Below, in pieces: positions 148 to 26,280 of a DNA stretch of 28,874 bases. The stretch spans positions 1 to 28,874 of the forward strand of contig CAJTOR010000005.1 of the NCBI GenBank assembly GCA_910577675.1, read 5' to 3'. Under the pieces are notes generated by a model. The model did no database searches. It saw only the letters and a list, made by a program, of their open reading frames with translations, and was not told the origin of the DNA. How positions within the stretch are numbered: the stretch's first letter is position 1; each line of letters begins with the position of its first letter. The DNA comes from an uncultured Lachnospiraceae bacterium (GTDB lineage: Bacteria; Bacillota; Clostridia; Lachnospirales; Lachnospiraceae). The translations under genes were made by a program, and so were the position numbers.

Positions 148-705
148 CTACAGATATCCTTTGCTGATTTCTTCCGCCAAACCAGTCAACAAAAGAAGGG
201 CATCCGTTTTCAGTCCGGGATTTGCATAAAAGCCTGCGTTTGCATAATCGGACGCTCTTTTGGAAAAGGTAAATGCAGTGGGTAAATCGCCTGCCTGTTT
301 GCAAAGTATGGCTTGCTCATAGGAAGCGCGCGCGAGGAAGGCAAGTTTTTCATCATAGAGGGGGTCAGTGTCCGCAGGCTCCAAAAGCCATTCCACAAGT
401 TCGCGATACTTTTTTGCCCCAAACCATTCCTTCATTATGGCAAGCTCAGCACCGGGGGAGTGGTCGGGGAGCGGTAGTGCAGGTTTTTTGGGGGAGGTAT
501 CTGCTTCCTCCGCCATCAGTACCGAGAGGGGAATGCCAAGTACCGAGGAGAGGTAGGCGAGTGTTTTCATGGACGGAAGGGCGGAGCCGCTTTCGATCTG
601 GCTTAACATATTCCTTGTAATGAAATCGCCGACAACTTCAGCCTGTGTCATTTTTTTAGCAAGCCGGGCTTCTTTGATACGCTGTCCGATTGTATGTGCA
701 TCCAT
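148..705 (-). CDS. XRE-family helix-turn-helix transcriptional regulator (Cro/C1-type HTH at N-terminus, ~120-aa C-terminal helical domain)
   Basis: N-terminal sequence MDAHTIGQRIKEARLAKKMTQAEVVGDFITRNMLSQIESG is a classic HTH_3/XRE signature. Start was moved to the second ATG at 705 because a GGAGG sits 5 nt upstream of it. The first ATG at 717 has no SD. Confidence 0.75.
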   Translation of the reverse strand: MDAHTIGQRIKEARLAKKMTQAEVVGDFITRNMLSQIESGSALPSMKTLAYLSSVLGIPLSVLMAEEADTSPKKPALPLPDHSPGAELAIMKEWFGAKKYRELVEWLLEPADTDPLYDEKLAFLARASYEQAILCKQAGDLPTAFTFSKRASDYANAGFYANPGLKTDALLLLTGLAEEISKGYL

Positions 706-3104: not shown

Positions 3105-3437
3105 GAGTCCGGCAAAGGTGGGAATAGTTTTAGAAGCAGTTAATTAGTGGTAAAAAACGGGGTTGTTGCAAAATCTGGATATTTTACAATATATGGTAGA
3201 GATGTTTTAACTATCCATACTATATATTGTTTGAAAATGCCATTTTGTAACAGCCCCCTTTTTGCTGCCTTATGAGTAAAAGTAGTGGTGGACAGAAAAG
3301 GGGAAGAAAAACAGGTTAAGATAATGGTTTAAAAGATAACATATACCAACCAGTGCGAAAGAAGGGAAAAATTCTGCTTTATTAGTTTCCCTAATGAAAA
3401 AGATTTAAGATATTCATTATCAATTTTCCCAAAAACA

Positions 3438-3446
3438 TGGTATGAT
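3438..3446 (+). promoter_or_regulatory. Possible extended -10 promoter element (TGgTATGAT) within the long purL leader
   Basis: TGnTATGAT match read from sequence. Only a weak -35 (TATCAA) at 17-nt spacing. Confidence 0.3.
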
Positions 3447-3703
3447 ATCAATATAGTAAAGTGGCATATAGGAAATTAAATAGGCGATTGCGAAACTCAC
3501 TGACAAATATTTATGCACTTTTTGATAGAAACGAACTTGAAATGTATCAACTAAGCTAAAAAGTTGTGCAAAATGGATATAAAAGTCAAAATTTTAGTGA
3601 GGAGAGTTGCAAAAGGAAAGCTTAAAAAAGCTAGGTCTTATGCGGCTTTTAGAGTTTAGCAATCACCTACAGGAATTTAAAATCAGAAAGGAGAAGTAAC
3701 CTA

Positions 3704-6700
3704 ATGGGAAACGTCAAAAGGATTTATGTGGAAAAGAAAGCACCCTACGCGGTACGTGCGAAGGAACTAAAAGGTGAGCTTTTAAGCTATCTTGGTTTAA
3801 AGAGTTTGAAGGAGGTGCGCGTCCTTATCCGCTACGATATTGAAAATATCAGCGACGACACCTATCAGAAAGCGCTCGGTACAATTTTTTTCGAGCCGCC
3901 GGTGGATATATTATATGAAGAAACTTTTCCGGTGGAAGCAGGTGATGCAGAGGGGAAAACCACACATATCTTTTCCGTGGAATACCTTCCGGGGCAGTTT
4001 GACCAGAGGGCGGATTCTGCGGAACAGTGCGTCAAGCTCCTGAACGAAACGGAAGAGCCGGTGATCCGCTCCGCGACGACCTACATCCTTACCGGGGAGA
4101 TTACCGCGGCGGATTTTGCGCGTGTAAAGGAATACTGCATTAATCCGGTGGACTCCCGCGAAACGGGGGAGGAAAAACCGGAAACACTTGTAACTGTATT
4201 TGACACGCCGGAAGATGTAAAGATTTTTGATGGTTTTAAAGATATGCCGGAGGCACAGTTAAAGGAGCTGTATGATTCCTTAAACCTTGCGATGACTTTT
4301 AAGGACTTTCTGCATATCCAGAATTATTTTAAGAATGAGGAGCATCGCGACCCATCCGTAACGGAAATCCGTGTGCTTGATACCTACTGGTCAGATCACT
4401 GCCGCCATACAACGTTCCTTACCGAGCTGACCGATGTGAAATTTGAGGACGGGTATTACAGAAAGCCGATTGAAGATTCTTTCCTGCGTTATAAGGCGGA
4501 TCGTGAAGTTCTTTATAAAGGAAGGGATGACAAATATATTTCGCTGATGGATATTGCGCTGCTTGCCATGAAAAAGCTGCGCGCGGAGGGCAAACTTTCC
4601 GATATGGAAGTTTCGGATGAGATCAATGCCTGCTCCATTGTGGTTCCGGTGACGATTGACGGGGTAACCGAGGAATGGCTGGTATTTTTCAAGAACGAAA
4701 CACATAACCACCCGACGGAAATTGAGCCGTTCGGCGGTGCGGCCACCTGCCTTGGCGGCGCGATCCGCGATCCGCTTTCCGGGCGCGGCTATGTTTACCA
4801 GGCAATGCGCGTGACGGGGGCAGCCGATCCAACCGTTTCCCTTGCGGACACGCTTTCCGGCAAGCTTGCGCAGCGCAAGATCGTGACCGGCGCAGCGAAG
4901 GGATACAGTTCCTACGGCAATCAGATTGGTCTGGCGACCGGGCTTGTCGATGAGGTTTATCATCCAAATTATGTTGCAAAGCGCATGGAAATCGGCGCGG
5001 TTATGGGCGCTGCTCCGCGCAAAAATGTAATCCGTGAGAATTCCGACCCGGGCGATATTATTATTTTGATGGGCGGGCGCACGGGGCGCGACGGCTGTGG
5101 CGGTGCGACGGGTTCTTCCAAGGCGCACACTACAGAATCCATCAATGTTTGTGGCGCGGAGGTGCAGAAGGGAAATGCGCCGACCGAGCGCAAATTGCAG
5201 AGGCTCTTCCGCCGCGAGGAGGTTGCGCATCTGATAAAGAAGTGCAACGATTTCGGAGCGGGCGGTGTGTCGGTTGCCATCGGTGAGCTGGCGGACGGGC
5301 TTCGCGTGCAGCTTGATAAGGTACCTAAGAAATATGCGGGGCTCGACGGCACGGAACTTGCGATTTCGGAATCGCAGGAGAGAATGGCGATTGTCGTGGA
5401 TAAAAAAGATGTCGATGCGATGCTCTCCTTTGCCGAGGAGGAGAACCTTGAAGCGGTGGTTGTTGCAGAGGTGACGAAAGAACCTAGGCTTGTGCTTGTA
5501 TGGCGGGGGAAGGAGATTGTCAATATTTCCCGTGCTTTCCTTAATACAAACGGCGCGCACCAGGAGGCGGCAGCAGTTGTGACAATGCCGGATGAGGGGG
5601 CGGATTATTTTAAGACCGGTGCAGCGTATGAAGCGGAAGCGGTAAAAAAACTTCGTGGGGCAGCTCCGAAAGCATCTGTCGGAAACTTTGACCTTAAAGC
5701 CACCTGGCTTTCCATGCTTGCCGATCTGAACGTATGTTCGAAGAAAGGGCTTGTCGAGATGTTTGACTCCTCCATCGGTGCGGCAACCGTGACAATGCCT
5801 TACGGCGGGAAATACCAGATGACCCCTGTGCAGACGATGGTGGCGAAGCTTCCGGTACTTTCCGGCGCGTGCGACACGGTGACAATGATGAGTTATGGAT
5901 ATGACCCGTACCTCTCAAGCTGGAGCCCGTACCACGGCGCAATGTATGCGGTGGTTTCTTCCGTGGCAAAAATTGTTGCGGCAGGCGGTGATTTTACAAA
6001 GATCCGATTCACCTTCCAGGAATATTTCCGCCGTCTGGGTACTGACCCGAAACACTGGGGTGAGCCGCTTTGTGCACTTTTGGGCGCGTATGAGGCGCAG
6101 CTTCGTTTTGGCCTGCCGTCCATCGGCGGCAAGGACAGCATGTCCGGAAGTTTTAACGAGATCAATGTACCGCCGACCCTCGTATCCTTTGCGGTCAATA
6201 TTGCAAAGAGTAAGGAGGTGGTAACACCGGAATTAAAGAAAGCGGGCAATGCGCTGGTGCGCTTTGTGATTAAGAAGGACGAGTATGGTCTTCCGGACTT
6301 TGAACAGATGATGGAGCTGTACTCAAATATTACAAAGCTTATGAGGGCGGGAGTGATTGTGTCCGCCTACGCGCTTGGTGCGAAAGGTATTGCGGAGGCA
6401 GTCAGCAAGATGGCGTTTGGAAACAGGCTGGGCGCTGAGCTTTGCAATGAGCGCGACCCTAAGACTTACTTTATGCCGGAATACGGCAATCTCATCGCGG
6501 AGGTTGCAAAGGAGGATGTGGCGAAGATTGAGGAGGCGGGCGTGCCGTTTGACTGGTTTGGCATGGTGGGCGAAGCGCCTGAATTCAAGGTCGGCGATGT
6601 GATTGTGCCTGTAAGTGAAGCGTTATCCGCCTGGGAGAACACATTGGAGAAAGTGTTCCCGATGCATTCCGGTGCGGTGGATGAGGCGCAGACATTTGAA

Positions 6701-11348: not shown

Positions 11349-11503
11349 GGGATACCTCCATAAAGTTTATTGCGGACAGTTTATCATATTCCGGATTCGG
11401 GTACAAAAAACAAAATAAAGAGAATAAGGGAGGATATGAGAGTATAAGCGAGTATAATTAATAAATACTAATAAAATTAATACATATCGAAACATATAGC
11501 AAG

Positions 11504-11571: not shown

Positions 11572-11622
11572 TAACGACAAAAAATGAGCCGTCATGGGCG
11601 GCGGTTGAAGGAGGAATTCATT

Positions 11623-11910
11623 ATGAAGTTAGTACCGTTAGGTGACAAGGTTGTGTTAAAGCAGCTCGTTGCAGAAGAAACGACAAAATCCGGTATCGTC
11701 CTGCCAGGTCAGGCAAAGGAAAAGCCGCAGCAGGCGGAAGTGATCGCAGTAGGACCGGGCGGCGTGGTTGACGGCAAGGAAGTTACAATGCAGGTGAAAG
11801 TCGGCGACAAAGTTATTTTCTCGAAATATTCCGGCACCGAGGTAAAGCTTGGCGAGGATGAGTATATTGTTGTAAAGCAGAACGATATCGTGGCGATTGT
11901 GGAGGACTAA
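11623..11910 (+). CDS. groES: Co-chaperonin GroES (Hsp10)
   Basis: Sequence MKLVPLGDKVVLKQ...IVLP...EYIVVKQNDIVAIVED. Start placed at the ATG preceded by GGAGG (the ORF track's longer N-terminus lacks an RBS). Confidence 0.95.
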   Translation: MKLVPLGDKVVLKQLVAEETTKSGIVLPGQAKEKPQQAEVIAVGPGGVVDGKEVTMQVKVGDKVIFSKYSGTEVKLGEDEYIVVKQNDIVAIVED

Positions 11911-11946
11911 TACTGATACGGCAGAAAGCAGTAACAGTAAGGCTAG

Positions 11947-13599
<1,653 letters not shown>

Positions 13600-20787: not shown

Positions 20788-21204
20788 ATGGAATTGAAAG
20801 TAGTGACAGAGTATGATAAAGAATTTGTTATGAGTATTGATAAGCATGTGGACGATGTGGCTTATGCCAGCCGGGTATATACAAAATCCGGTTATGTTAT
20901 CTGGGTGGGAGATGAGCGGGCTGGAATAATATCACATTGTATTCTGTGGGATAATCTTCCATTTATGAATTTACTATTTGTTAAGGAGGAGTACCGGCAT
21001 AAAGGGTATGCAAAGCAGGCAATTATCAGTTGGGAAAATGAAATGAAAAAACGGGGTTATAAGATGACGCTGATTTCCACGCAGGTTGATGAGGGGGCAC
21101 AGCATCTGTATAGGAAACTGGGATATGTGGATTGCGGTGGATTGGTATTTCATAACACGCCGTTTGACCAGCCCATGGAAATGTTTTTTAGGAAAGTTTT
21201 GTAG
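20788..21204 (+). CDS. GNAT-family N-acetyltransferase
   Basis: AAGGAG RBS 6 nt upstream of ATG. Acetyl-CoA binding motif A region: LFVKEEYRHKGYAKQAI...RKLGY. Low GC relative to the flanks. Confidence 0.8.
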   Translation: MELKVVTEYDKEFVMSIDKHVDDVAYASRVYTKSGYVIWVGDERAGIISHCILWDNLPFMNLLFVKEEYRHKGYAKQAIISWENEMKKRGYKMTLISTQVDEGAQHLYRKLGYVDCGGLVFHNTPFDQPMEMFFRKVL

Positions 21205-21409
21205 GTGAGTTTTGTAAGTAAGTTTTGTGAGTAAATCTCATACAAAACTGATTTGTTATATTATGAAAATGGTTTATGGATTAGTTCGATTTCGTGCATT
21301 GAAGATAACTATTTTTTACACATTCGGTTAAAATAGGGCTTGGCAGGGATAATTAATCTGCTTTACATGAAACGTTTTGCCACCGCGAAACTATCTTTCC
21401 CATCTCATA

Positions 21410-24253: not shown

Positions 24254-25219
24254 ATGAATGCACATATTATAGGAACCGGGAGTTTTCTCCCTGAAAAGGT
24301 AGTTACAAACTTTGATTTAGCAGAGCGGATGGAAACGAATGATGAGTGGATTGTGAGCCGCACGGGTATCCGCCAGAGGCATATTGCAGTGGAGGAAAGT
24401 ACTGCGGGCATGGCGGCGGAGGCTGCGCGGAGGGCTCTTTCCTGCGCGGGAATGACGGCAGGGGAGCTGGAGATGATTCTTTTAGCCACGGTTTCCCCGG
24501 ATCATATTGTGCCAAGTGCAGCCTGTGAGGTACAGGCGATGCTCGGTGCCGTGAATGCGGTGGCAATCGAGCTTAATGCGGCATGTTCGGGATTTGTCTT
24601 CGCGCTGAATACGGCGCAGGCATATATCAGGGCGGGGATTTACTCCAGAATCCTTGTGATTGGAGTGGAAACCCTCTCAAAACTGGTGGACTGGACTGAC
24701 CGTTCCACCTGTATTCTGTTTGGGGACGGGGCGGGTGCAGCGGTGGTGACAGCATCCGAAAACAGGGGGATTCAGGATTTTATACAGTTTTCCGACGGCG
24801 CGAAGGGTGAGGCATTGCTGTGTGATGCGAAGCCGCTGCGCAATTTATTCGCGCACCAGGAACCTGCACAGGAATTTGTGAAGATGGACGGGCAGGAGGT
24901 GTTTAAATTTGCCGTGCGCCGCGTCAGTGAATCGATTGACCAGCTTTTAGAACGAAACGGTCTTACGGCGGGAGATATCGGGTGTTATGTTCTGCATCAG
25001 GCAAATGCCAGGATTATCGCTTCTGTGATAAAGCATCTGAAGGCGGATGCGGATAAATTTCCTATGAATGTGGAGCGCTGCGGCAACACTTCCGGGGCTT
25101 CCGTGCCATTGCTCTTAGATGAGCTTTCCCGCTCCGGCCGCCTGAGGGAGGGTGACCGGGTGATTATGTCCGGCTTTGGCGGGGGGCTGACCTGGGGAAG
25201 CATTTATATGATATGGTAA
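24254..25219 (+). CDS. fabH: 3-oxoacyl-[ACP] synthase III (KAS III); standalone, not in a fab cluster
   Basis: N-terminal sequence MNAHIIGTGSFLPEKVVTNFDLAERMETNDEWIVSRTGIRQRHIA. The catalytic Cys is in ELNAACSGFVFAL. His/Asn motifs: LHQANARI...GNTSGAS. The C-terminal GGGLTWG is typical of FabH. Start chosen at MNAH by homology to FabH N-termini. An alternative ATG lies at 24227. Confidence 0.88.
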   Translation: MNAHIIGTGSFLPEKVVTNFDLAERMETNDEWIVSRTGIRQRHIAVEESTAGMAAEAARRALSCAGMTAGELEMILLATVSPDHIVPSAACEVQAMLGAVNAVAIELNAACSGFVFALNTAQAYIRAGIYSRILVIGVETLSKLVDWTDRSTCILFGDGAGAAVVTASENRGIQDFIQFSDGAKGEALLCDAKPLRNLFAHQEPAQEFVKMDGQEVFKFAVRRVSESIDQLLERNGLTAGDIGCYVLHQANARIIASVIKHLKADADKFPMNVERCGNTSGASVPLLLDELSRSGRLREGDRVIMSGFGGGLTWGSIYMIW

Positions 25220-25276
25220 AAAATTTGTTTTTGGCAGTCTGTCAGGCTTGCAGGGGTATTGTGGGCGGGTATATGG

Positions 25277-25540
25277 TGTAATGTCCTTCGATATTATACC
25301 ATGTCGTTCCAACATGCTAAGCGTATTTATGCGCTTTCCCTGCGGGACGTGCACACGGTTCGCCAAGGAAGATGTCCTCCCTTTGGTCGGACGGCGAACC
25401 GGCGCAAGTATAATATCTTTTGATATATTACCATGTCGTTCCAACATGCTAAGCGCATTTATGCGCTTTCCCTGCGGGGCATGCACAAGATTTGCCAAAG
25501 AAATTATCCGCCTTTTGGTCGCATGGTAAATCAGCGATGA
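25277..25540. repeat. Tandem direct repeat, 2 copies of ~132 bp at ~85% identity (about 25277-25408 and 25409-25540)
   Basis: Units aligned by eye. Both share ...TA(T)TACCATGTCGTTCCAACATGCTAAGCG(T/C)ATTTATGCGCTTTCCCTGCGGG... and a conserved CCAAGG/CCTTTGG hairpin. The period is a multiple of 3. Confidence 0.75.
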
Positions 25541-25726
25541 ATTTTGACCAAAGGGAGAAAATTTTCATCAGTGAATTATATACATTCCCTGGGGGAATAT
25601 GGATGAAGGACATGGTCAAATATAAATAATTTGAGAGATTGGCAGTGGGATGGTATGTATATTTTGTATGCTCCCGAAAAAATCCGGGAAAAAATTTAAA
25701 AATTTTCAAATTGTGCTTGACAATTC

Positions 25727-25756
25727 GGAAAAAAAGGTGCATAATAAATGAGCAAC
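25727..25756 (+). promoter_or_regulatory. Sigma-A promoter for the tRNA operon (-35 TTGACA 25727-25732, -10 TGcATAATA region 25748-25756)
   Basis: Consensus -35 and TG-extended -10 at 17-18-nt spacing, ~55 nt upstream of tRNA-Pro. Confidence 0.55.
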
Positions 25757-25810
25757 GTCACTGATGCGTTCTTTGTCAAATAGAGGGAGGATGCGGGGCA
25801 GTTGTTACTT

Positions 25811-25884
25811 CGAGGCGTGGCTCAGTTTGGTAGAGCGCTGCGTTCGGGACGCAGAGGTCGCAAGTTCGAATCTTGTCGCCTCGA
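25811..25884 (+). tRNA. tRNA-Pro (anticodon CGG)
   Basis: Cloverleaf folded by hand. Acceptor pair CGAGGCG/CGCCTCG, D-arm GCTC-AGTTTGGTA-GAGC, anticodon stem-loop CTGCG-TTCGGGA-CGCAG with G37, T-arm GCAAG-TTCGAAT-CTTGT, discriminator A. CCA not encoded. Confidence 0.9.
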
Positions 25885-25904
25885 TTTTGTGCGAAAGCGC
25901 AAGT

Positions 25905-25977
25905 GCTGGAATAGCTCAGCCGGTAGAGCACTTCACTCGTAATGAAGGGGTCGTCAGTTCAAATCTGATTTCCAGCT
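25905..25977 (+). tRNA. tRNA-Thr (anticodon CGU)
   Basis: Acceptor pair GCTGGAA/TTCCAGC, D-arm GCTC-AGCCGGTA-GAGC, anticodon stem-loop CTTCA-CTCGTAA-TGAAG, T-arm GTCAG-TTCAAAT-CTGAT, discriminator T. CCA not encoded. Confidence 0.9.
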
Positions 25978-25978
25978 T

Positions 25979-26018
25979 ACCGTGTAAAGAATCGTGAGGG
26001 TATCACGGTTCTTTTTTT
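25979..26018 (+). terminator. Intrinsic terminator after the tRNA pair
   Basis: Stem ACCGTG...CACGGT (inner CGTGA-gggta-TCACG) followed by TCTTTTTTTGT. Confidence 0.65.
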
Positions 26019-26252: not shown

Positions 26253-26280
26253 TTGACAGAATAGATAAAAGCGTTATAAT
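26253..26280 (+). promoter_or_regulatory. Sigma-A promoter for the histidine-kinase fusion gene (-35 TTGACA 26253-26258, 16-nt spacer, -10 TATAAT 26275-26280)
   Basis: Consensus hexamers read directly, ~50 nt upstream of the GGAGG RBS/ATG at 26332. Confidence 0.6.

Follow-up and report, generated by a model that had tools for sequence, protein, structure and literature searches.

The BOX elements of pneumococci (boxA-boxB(n)-boxC) are short modular intergenic repeats, rich in hairpins, in which one module is variably repeated in tandem; they often lie near gene starts and have no transposase of their own. Correia elements (CREE) of Neisseria are ∼100–150 nt long, occur in many dispersed copies, and combine terminal inverted repeats with promoter hexamers able to drive neighbouring genes. 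REP/BIME sequences and REPINs are mobilised by RAYT (Y1 HUH) transposases, PATEs derive from IS200/IS605, and the folding of single-stranded DNA (ssDNA) hairpins is central to this mobility. The Lachnospiraceae are among the dominant gut bacteria, and to our knowledge almost nothing has been recorded about their interspersed repeats. Here we analyse a tandem repeat lying between fabH and two tRNA genes in a stretch of 28,874 nt from an uncultured Lachnospiraceae bacterium (contig CAJTOR010000005.1, positions 1 to 28,874; hereafter the window). The repeat is probably a three-unit cluster, atypical in its placement, of a non-coding and hairpin-rich Lachnospiraceae repeat family that carries a promoter. 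Our best reading of the family as a whole is that it is of the BOX/Correia/REP kind, equipped with a promoter, and not previously described in Rfam or in the literature searched.

Two further groups of sequences bear on the comparison. Putative mobile promoters are highly similar stretches of 50–100 nt that recur 5′ of non-homologous genes, in one genome or across several (Matus-Garcia, Nijveen and van Passel 2012, PMC3488235); the same paper mentions CREE as miniature inverted-repeat transposable elements (MITEs) of 5′ untranslated regions. GCGNAGC/GCGNNAGC and CCGAAGG are described as extraordinarily stable DNA mini-hairpins, and CCGAAGG, as well as GGA and GAA loops, occurs in priming signals and phage N4 promoters (PMC13037366; PMC3201870). 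Triloops of the GNA type are typical of stable DNA hairpins, not of RNA hairpins (PMC13037366; PMC3201870).

Three repeat units between fabH and the tRNA genes

A preliminary description of the window, made from its letters, recorded two neighbouring units of ∼132 bp that were ∼85% identical. The adjacent 132-nt units are confirmed (25276–25404 and 25408–25536), with an ungapped identity of 81%; in the register 25276–25407 versus 25408–25539 there are 27 differences in 132 nt, which puts the identity at ∼80%, below the first estimate. Mean column identity of both units in a MAFFT alignment is 86%. Within a 48-nt core (25299–25346 and 25431–25478) a single base differs, a degree of identity matched by none of 100 shuffles. 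Tandem Repeats Finder gave no entry for the 132-nt repeat.

The count of two copies did not stand, for the repeat has a third member, a decayed and inverted unit at ∼25522–25630 on the minus strand (unit C). An inverted repeat (25359–25388 and 25546–25575) pointed to it, and its local alignment with a canonical unit scores 44, compared to 13.6 ± 2.1 (maximum 23) for shuffles. A covariance model built with unit C excluded recovers it at 25522–25624 (minus strand) with 27.1 bits and an E value of 7.6e-5. The same model, which does include the two direct units, gives 103.9 bits for unit A (132 nt, 25275–25406, plus strand) and 61.3 bits for unit B (132 nt, 25407–25539, plus strand), and its search of the window returned no copy besides these three. 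The whole cluster, two units direct and one inverted, spans 25275–25630.

The 5′ end of unit A is a degenerate junction palindrome, GGTGTAATGTC-CTTC-GATATTATACC (25275–25300), and that of unit B is the palindrome AGTATAATATC-TTTT-GATATATTACC (25407–25432); there is no palindrome at the 3′ end of unit B. Units B and C are joined tail-to-tail at the near-palindromic CAGCGATG (25532–25539), and the tail of the canonical unit, CAGCGCTG, is itself palindromic. The degenerate arm of unit C, with a -10-like TATAAA, points toward the tRNA genes.

A dispersed family in the Lachnospiraceae

In two related contigs (L015 and L017), units of the same kind are bounded by a perfect palindrome, GGTATAATATC-N4-GATATTATACC, from which the two junction palindromes of the window differ at 2 and 3 positions. 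When metagenome contigs were scanned, the pattern GTATAATATC-N4-GATATTATAC turned up in at least 120 of them, whose sources were human gut, rodent caecum and fermentation samples. Two or three palindromes at a spacing of 70–132 nt are present on many of these contigs, and the arrays consist of one to three units of 70–136 nt; three contigs (OGGQ01000026.1, Ga0129308_1000221 and OFHA01000645.1) each have two distant sites. The arrays adjoin genes whose products are identical to proteins of Lachnotalea sp. AF33-28, Eubacterium sp. 14-2, Lachnospiraceae bacterium KK002 and Lachnospiraceae metagenome-assembled genomes.

Unit length divides the family into subfamilies of ∼75–81, 100–104, 110–116 and 130–133 nt. 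The window units are of the 130–133-nt type, which has an extra hairpin, AAGCGCATTTATGCGCTT, and their close relatives are found in L103, L131, L028, L070 and L090. Units A and B represent two forms of a long stem. These forms, GGTTCGCC/GGCGAACC and GATTTGCC/GGCAAATC, neighbour each other in L103, L131 and L028 as well, and their co-occurrence in other arrays indicates that they are old variants or subtypes and not the product of local evolution.

Arrays also vary by whole units between strains whose flanks are 100% identical (L044 versus L052; L068, L036 and L113). The strains compared (L044 565–671 against L052 6101–6126, and the set L068/L036/L113) differ by exactly one or two ∼81-nt units ahead of the same downstream gene, which in the latter set encodes a response regulator. 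The 4-nt spacers between units are mostly the same within an array, which could reflect a target-site duplication but would also follow from recent unit duplication. With its short non-coding unit, its 11-nt inverted arms (GATATTATACC and GGTATAATATC) and its many dispersed copies, the family resembles a MITE; its palindromes are dispersed and extragenic, as in REP/BIME sequences, and the window cluster contains both orientations.

Searches for an already known counterpart were unproductive. An 18-mer of the identical core, run against one genome per species, gave two chance matches only, in an alphaproteobacterium and a Thiobacillus, and plasmid and phage collections held no family match. One 8.3-kb contig classed as viral in IMG/VR (L019) has a unit and palindrome at its very start (1–93); host DNA or the edge of an assembly is the probable reason. 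Rfam 15 identified only tRNAs in the window, with nothing credible at E values up to 10 on 25150–25850; for 13 loci bearing canonical arrays, its only match was a T-box elsewhere on one contig. That T-box leader (108 bits; L061 9212–9470) shares its contig with a multi-unit array and is unrelated to the repeat. The literature that we searched held nothing relevant on the arm sequences or on repeats or MITEs of the Lachnospiraceae.

Unit anatomy and conserved hairpins

Read along the plus strand of the window, an array opens with a lone arm, GATATTATACC, and then CATG. The units each close with GCGCnG-GGTATAATATC, successive units are linked by 4 nt, and one further arm plus AT lies 3′ of the last unit. 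Every junction is therefore a 26-nt palindrome with 11-nt arms and a 4-nt spacer. Lone arms number 36, compared to 1.3 expected by chance, and nearly all of them sit at array starts.

An alignment of 41 units yields a common fold consisting of a closing stem formed arm to arm, helix H2, an optional helix H2b, helix H3 and a bipartite helix H4. In this multi-hairpin fold, 91.5% of alignment cells are paired, compared to 33–39% when the 3′ partner is slid. Changes on both sides of a pair are seen in 107 cells, a number reached in none of 500 shuffles (36 ± 5), and the pairs in the stems vary (UA/CG 23:17, AU/GC 30:11, CG/UA 16:12). The arms of the junction palindromes contain 18 compensated double changes, versus 5.5 ± 2.3 in shuffles. 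Judged by this covariation, the unit is a structured non-coding element whose hairpins have been conserved.

Unit A has the complete set of helices on the plus strand: H2 (25301–25306/25310–25315), H2b (25319–25325/25330–25336), H3 (25337–25340/25344–25347), outer H4 (25351–25364/25393–25405), inner H4 (25374–25380/25385–25392) and the closing stem, in which 25290–25300 pairs with 25407–25417. H4 of unit B belongs to the GATTTGCC/GGTAAATC subtype. In the window, the palindromes and H2 are degenerate. The preliminary description had singled out a conserved hairpin, CCAAGG/CCTTTGG; while conserved hairpins do exist, the one named is a weaker alternative, 76.7% paired (against 91.5% for the multi-hairpin fold) and with covariation not beyond that of shuffles. 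A role as an intrinsic terminator was rejected: no T-run follows any hairpin, and a terminator scan of the repeat was empty.

The hairpin loops differ sharply between strands. G..A loops make up 99 of the 224 hairpin loops on the strand opposite the plus strand of the window, and only 3 occur on the other strand. Among the 99 are 28 GAA, 16 GGA, 7 GCA, 9 GACA, 6 GGCA and 5 each of GTCA, GCCA and GATA. The motifs of this one strand include C-GAA-G, C-GGA-G, C-GCA-G, GCGAAGC and GCGAAAGC, and the listed tetraloops of the palindrome type are mostly GNCA or GNTA, not the GNRA expected of RNA. Such GNA/GNNA loops, confined largely to one strand, suggest folding, and perhaps spread, as ssDNA; we infer that one DNA strand of the element, or less likely an RNA of that strand, folds.

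Position relative to genes and a predicted promoter

Of 29 oriented arrays, 27 lie upstream of the gene next to their lone arm, which points away from the array (binomial P = 1.6e-6); the gene on the opposite side shows no orientation preference (15/29). The median distance from the half-palindrome end of the array to the gene is 44 nt, and in most cases a Shine-Dalgarno (SD) sequence with its start codon is reached within some tens of bases of the array end. On the gene-sense strand, this end reads (C/T)ATGGTATAAT, an extended -10 of the Gram-positive type whose positions are each conserved at 80–99%, with weaker conservation past TATAAT; every arm has this motif on one strand; in promoter sense, the half-palindrome end reads CATGGTATAAT. 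The genes downstream are unrelated to one another, and include upp, hprK, an asparaginyl-tRNA synthetase-like gene, and genes for response regulators, XRE regulators and HAD hydrolases. Near-identical sequence thus stands directly 5′ of non-homologous genes, the arrangement by which putative mobile promoters are defined. Fourteen arrays lie between diverging genes, where the short median distance leaves little room for another promoter, and the promoter is therefore most likely in the arm. Most likely, then, the element carries or duplicates the promoter of the gene behind it and is a 'mobile promoter', as judged from its conserved end and its position.

Within the window, unit A contains a promoter-like site, TTAGCA-16-TATAAT with TG (CATGGTATAAT; 25293–25320, minus strand; 10/12 matches plus TG), directed toward fabH, and its -10 is the conserved extended -10 of the family. 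Elsewhere in the window, 3437–3449 (plus strand) reads ATGGTATGATATC, an arm-like extended -10 with no unit, 255 nt 5′ of an open reading frame (ORF) of 1282 aa. This may be an ordinary promoter, and would then show how close native promoters are to the arm of the element.

Several points weigh against the reading of the family as a mobile, promoter-carrying repeat. Promoter activity is deduced from sequence and position. The exact palindrome pattern selected the sample, and the apparent conservation of the arms is inflated accordingly. Gene positions come from crude ORF calls, and some loci are counted twice, having been seen in two metagenomes, which makes the effective sample a little smaller than the counts suggest. 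The window array itself is one of the two exceptions to the rule, seen in 27 of 29 arrays, of lying upstream of a gene. Neither a transposase nor a recombinase was found near the elements; a regular-expression search for the HUH Y1 motif in six-frame translations of 1.09 Mb of flanking sequence, which is a weak test, found none; and no gene bracketed by arms, nor any composite or autonomous element, was seen in that 1.09 Mb. Filled and empty sites paired at high identity were absent among the loci compared, which offered only copy-number variants. Finally, wobble-type mismatches in the stems are balanced at the level of the family (G:T 63 versus A:C 83), so the strand signal comes from the loops only; G-U wobbles in the two window copies, once taken as a mark of plus-strand RNA, were dropped as an argument for this reason. 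An IS200/RAYT partner was set aside, as the weak test for an HUH motif in the flanks gave none.

Alternative explanations

Each unit might instead be a structured RNA whose transcription begins at the extended -10 of the palindrome and which acts at the RNA level, as a small RNA or as a cis-acting leader; tandem copies would then be duplicated RNA genes. We consider this unlikely. It would explain the conserved multi-hairpin fold with its covariation, the promoter-like element at every unit boundary, the strand-specific loops, and the usual location between promoter and gene start. However, no terminator follows the units, no Rfam family matches them, and the functional unrelatedness of the downstream genes argues against a riboswitch-type leader. 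The loops, too, fit poorly with RNA, as the listed tetraloops of the palindromes are mostly GNCA/GNTA instead of GNRA and GNA triloops are typical of DNA (PMC13037366, PMC3201870). Moreover, copy number differs among near-identical strains, and a transcript begun at the promoter nearest the gene would omit the structured part.

Alternatively, the 26-nt palindrome (11-4-11) could be the operator of a dimeric transcription factor and define a regulon, with arrays as multiplied operator-promoter modules. Its geometry fits a helix-turn-helix dimer, it overlaps the -10, and of 52 palindromes without a recognisable unit, 51 are in spacers flanked by one or two diverging genes. We nonetheless judge this quite improbable. 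The compensated changes in the arms (18 versus 5.5 expected), such as ATATC/GATAT to ATGTC/GACAT and AGC/GCT, indicate that pairing is preserved rather than a sequence recognised by protein. On the gene-proximal side, conservation peaks over (C/T)ATGGTATAAT and weakens past TATAAT; the downstream genes have no common function; and the hairpin bodies and strand-specific loops would be left unexplained.

The preliminary description favoured a duplicated small CxxC peptide, secreted or modified, under purifying selection and linked to an AgrC-type kinase encoded downstream, a proposal that can hardly be right. A 93-codon frame is indeed open at 25248–25529, and, as first reported, it begins with TTG and lacks an ATG or SD sequence; a 29-aa stretch has few replacements between the copies. 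Over the whole unit, however, the codon differences in this frame are synonymous in 6 cases and non-synonymous in 15, and the synonymous excess holds only in the near-identical core; the apparent bias arises from that core together with paired changes at stem positions. Synonymous differences number 3–8 in the other five frames, and frame 2 of the minus strand, which has no stop in either unit, shows 8 synonymous and 14 non-synonymous. A CGG/AGA difference, read as a silent arginine change, sits in the 5′ arm of the covarying stem GGTTCGCC/GGCGAACC versus GATTTGCC/GGTAAATC.

The proposed frame does not survive in the family either. Unit B terminates in a stop, stops occur in 15 of 42 family units, and the 'PCG' of the CxxC motif is 'PSG' (FPSG..C) in five of the six 130–133-nt relatives inspected. 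The closest relatives measure 130, 131 and 133 nt, and the lengths of 47 of 82 units are not divisible by 3, which breaks the frame. The unit belongs, as set out above, to a dispersed family present on at least 120 contigs, and membership of a repetitive family is an outcome that the preliminary description had itself named as refuting, although this family has yet to receive a name. A search of 5.8 billion proteins matched only a 71-aa ORF of the same species, gene callers left the region empty in same-species contigs L001–L004, and Pfam gave only a sub-threshold chance match. Nor did we find a link to the kinase: L015 keeps the kinase gene (GHKL plus DUF3298) with no repeat in its fabH–tRNA spacer, and family members elsewhere adjoin unrelated genes. 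The CxxC 'peptide' is best seen as a by-product of the conserved hairpins. A CRISPR array is dismissed, since the sequences between palindromes are homologous mutually and across loci; here the earlier view, that the repeat is no CRISPR array and has no recognisable transposase nearby, holds.

The locus in the window and in sister species

The repeat lies, as first described, between fabH and the tRNA promoter. The fabH gene occupies 24254–25219 (plus strand), its real start being the ATG at 24254, and a scan found no terminator-like site between it and the repeat. Beyond the cluster are the tRNA promoter (TTGACA-17-CATAAT, 25717–25745), tRNA-Pro(CGG) (25810–25885) and tRNA-Thr(CGT) (25905–25977), all on the plus strand and all conserved in relatives without the repeat, followed by a terminator (25986–26014). 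A GHKL (HATPase_c_5) and DUF3298 protein of 682 aa is encoded from 26332 onward, and 52 nt 5′ of its gene lies TTGACA-16-TATAAT (26253–26280), a promoter that matches the consensus perfectly (12/12).

Contigs of the same species have the same repeat, with at most 3 substitutions within the first 480 nt past fabH. Six short contigs from short-read assemblies of the species (L005–L010) all end 87–182 nt past the fabH stop, inside unit A; the repeat breaks de Bruijn-graph assemblies.

In sister species L013 and L015 (FabH 91% and 85% identical, respectively), the order galT, fabH, tRNA-Pro, tRNA-Thr is kept, as is the tRNA promoter, and the covariance model detects no unit in the interval from fabH to the tRNAs. 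When the window spacer is compared by BLAST, homology to L013 and L015 resumes at ∼25648 (25648–25662), leaving a segment without a sister-species counterpart (25220–25647) that contains the whole cluster. By this comparison, the cluster is an insertion relative to the sister species. The spacer of L013 measures 80 nt (4467–4546) and has a strong terminator hairpin, versus 428 nt in the window; in both L013 and L015 a strong hairpin is found directly 3′ of fabH. The window has no terminator-like site at 25220–25275, and the insertion may have replaced the fabH terminator.

Two relatives carry family members at other sites. In L017 (FabH 74%), related tandem units with a period of 112–113 are sited between galT and fabH. 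The sole covariance-model match in L015 is a remnant (281–419, minus strand; E = 1e-5) in another spacer, upstream of fabH. The equivalent of that spacer in the window holds ∼4 tandem copies of a 13-nt unit, GGAAAGTTTTGTA (21177–21234), between a GNAT gene and a gene of 222 aa. A further short tandem repeat in the window, AGAGAATAAGCGAGGATATG (10/20 nt, ∼2 copies, 11415–11457), lies just 5′ of a pair of ORFs of 108 and 541 aa (11584–13599).

Proposed mechanism and implications

In the reading that we prefer, that of a promoter-carrying repeat family, the arms would act as promoters and the element would bring a promoter to genes behind its landing site. Array length would change through recombination or slippage between units, and folding of one DNA strand would matter for spread or function. 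In the window, units A and B have their -10 ends directed into the 3′ end of fabH, and unit C faces the tRNA genes, which have a conserved promoter of their own. The cluster here is probably an ageing, degenerate insertion without a dedicated role. Its possible effects include antisense transcription into fabH, read-through, or a structured 3′ end for fabH mRNA, the last being conceivable because fabH has no terminator-like site here.

A bolder proposal, which we regard as possible but on balance doubtful, is a self-amplifying 'promoter cassette'. Each unit would supply a -35-independent extended -10, mini-hairpins formed in one strand as ssDNA would allow hairpin-dependent spread to sites 5′ of unrelated housekeeping genes, and tandem expansion and contraction would make promoter dosage variable between strains.

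With the peptide removed, a tempting false gene is gone from the window. More generally, the family disrupts short-read assemblies, yields spurious ORFs (18 arrays overlap ORF calls of 100 aa or more) and varies in copy number between otherwise identical strains, and it usually sits at the expected promoter position of a housekeeping gene. If the promoter role is true, the family would offer a clear, experimentally tractable example of promoters that move and are amplified in tandem, and also a natural setting for GNA/GNNA DNA mini-hairpins.

Comparison with known systems

BOX elements resemble the Lachnospiraceae family in having modular non-coding units, variable tandem number, hairpins, proximity to gene starts and no encoded transposase. 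They differ in lacking a -10-containing palindrome that bounds every unit, and in their host, Streptococcus as opposed to Lachnospiraceae. We know of no sequence relationship between the two, and the likeness is drawn from descriptions only. Correia elements and other promoter-bearing MITEs share size, terminal inverted repeats, promoter hexamers and dispersal with the family. Correia elements, however, are single and insert at TA with duplication, whereas the Lachnospiraceae units form head-to-tail arrays with 4-nt spacers and a near-fixed orientation (27/29).

Like the family described here, REP/BIME sequences are dispersed, clustered palindromes, sometimes in both orientations as in the window, and the GNA/GNNA loops of the family likewise point to ssDNA folding. 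The differences are that the family has no GTAG-type head (its arms begin GGTATAAT), lies 5′ of gene starts and not at 3′ ends, and has no gene with an HUH motif in 1.09 Mb of flanks. The DNA mini-hairpins GCGNAGC/GCGNNAGC, CCGAAGG of ssiA priming signals, and the hairpin promoters of phage N4 virion RNA polymerase (PMC13037366) have the same motifs as the loops of the family. These each function as an individual site in an origin or promoter of a phage or plasmid, whereas the family is a dispersed chromosomal repeat, and the likeness is one of motif only.

The Lachnospiraceae family shows exactly the pattern of the putative mobile promoters (PMC3488235). Those promoters are a descriptive similarity class without shared structure, whereas the Lachnospiraceae family has palindromic junctions, covarying hairpins and tandem amplification.

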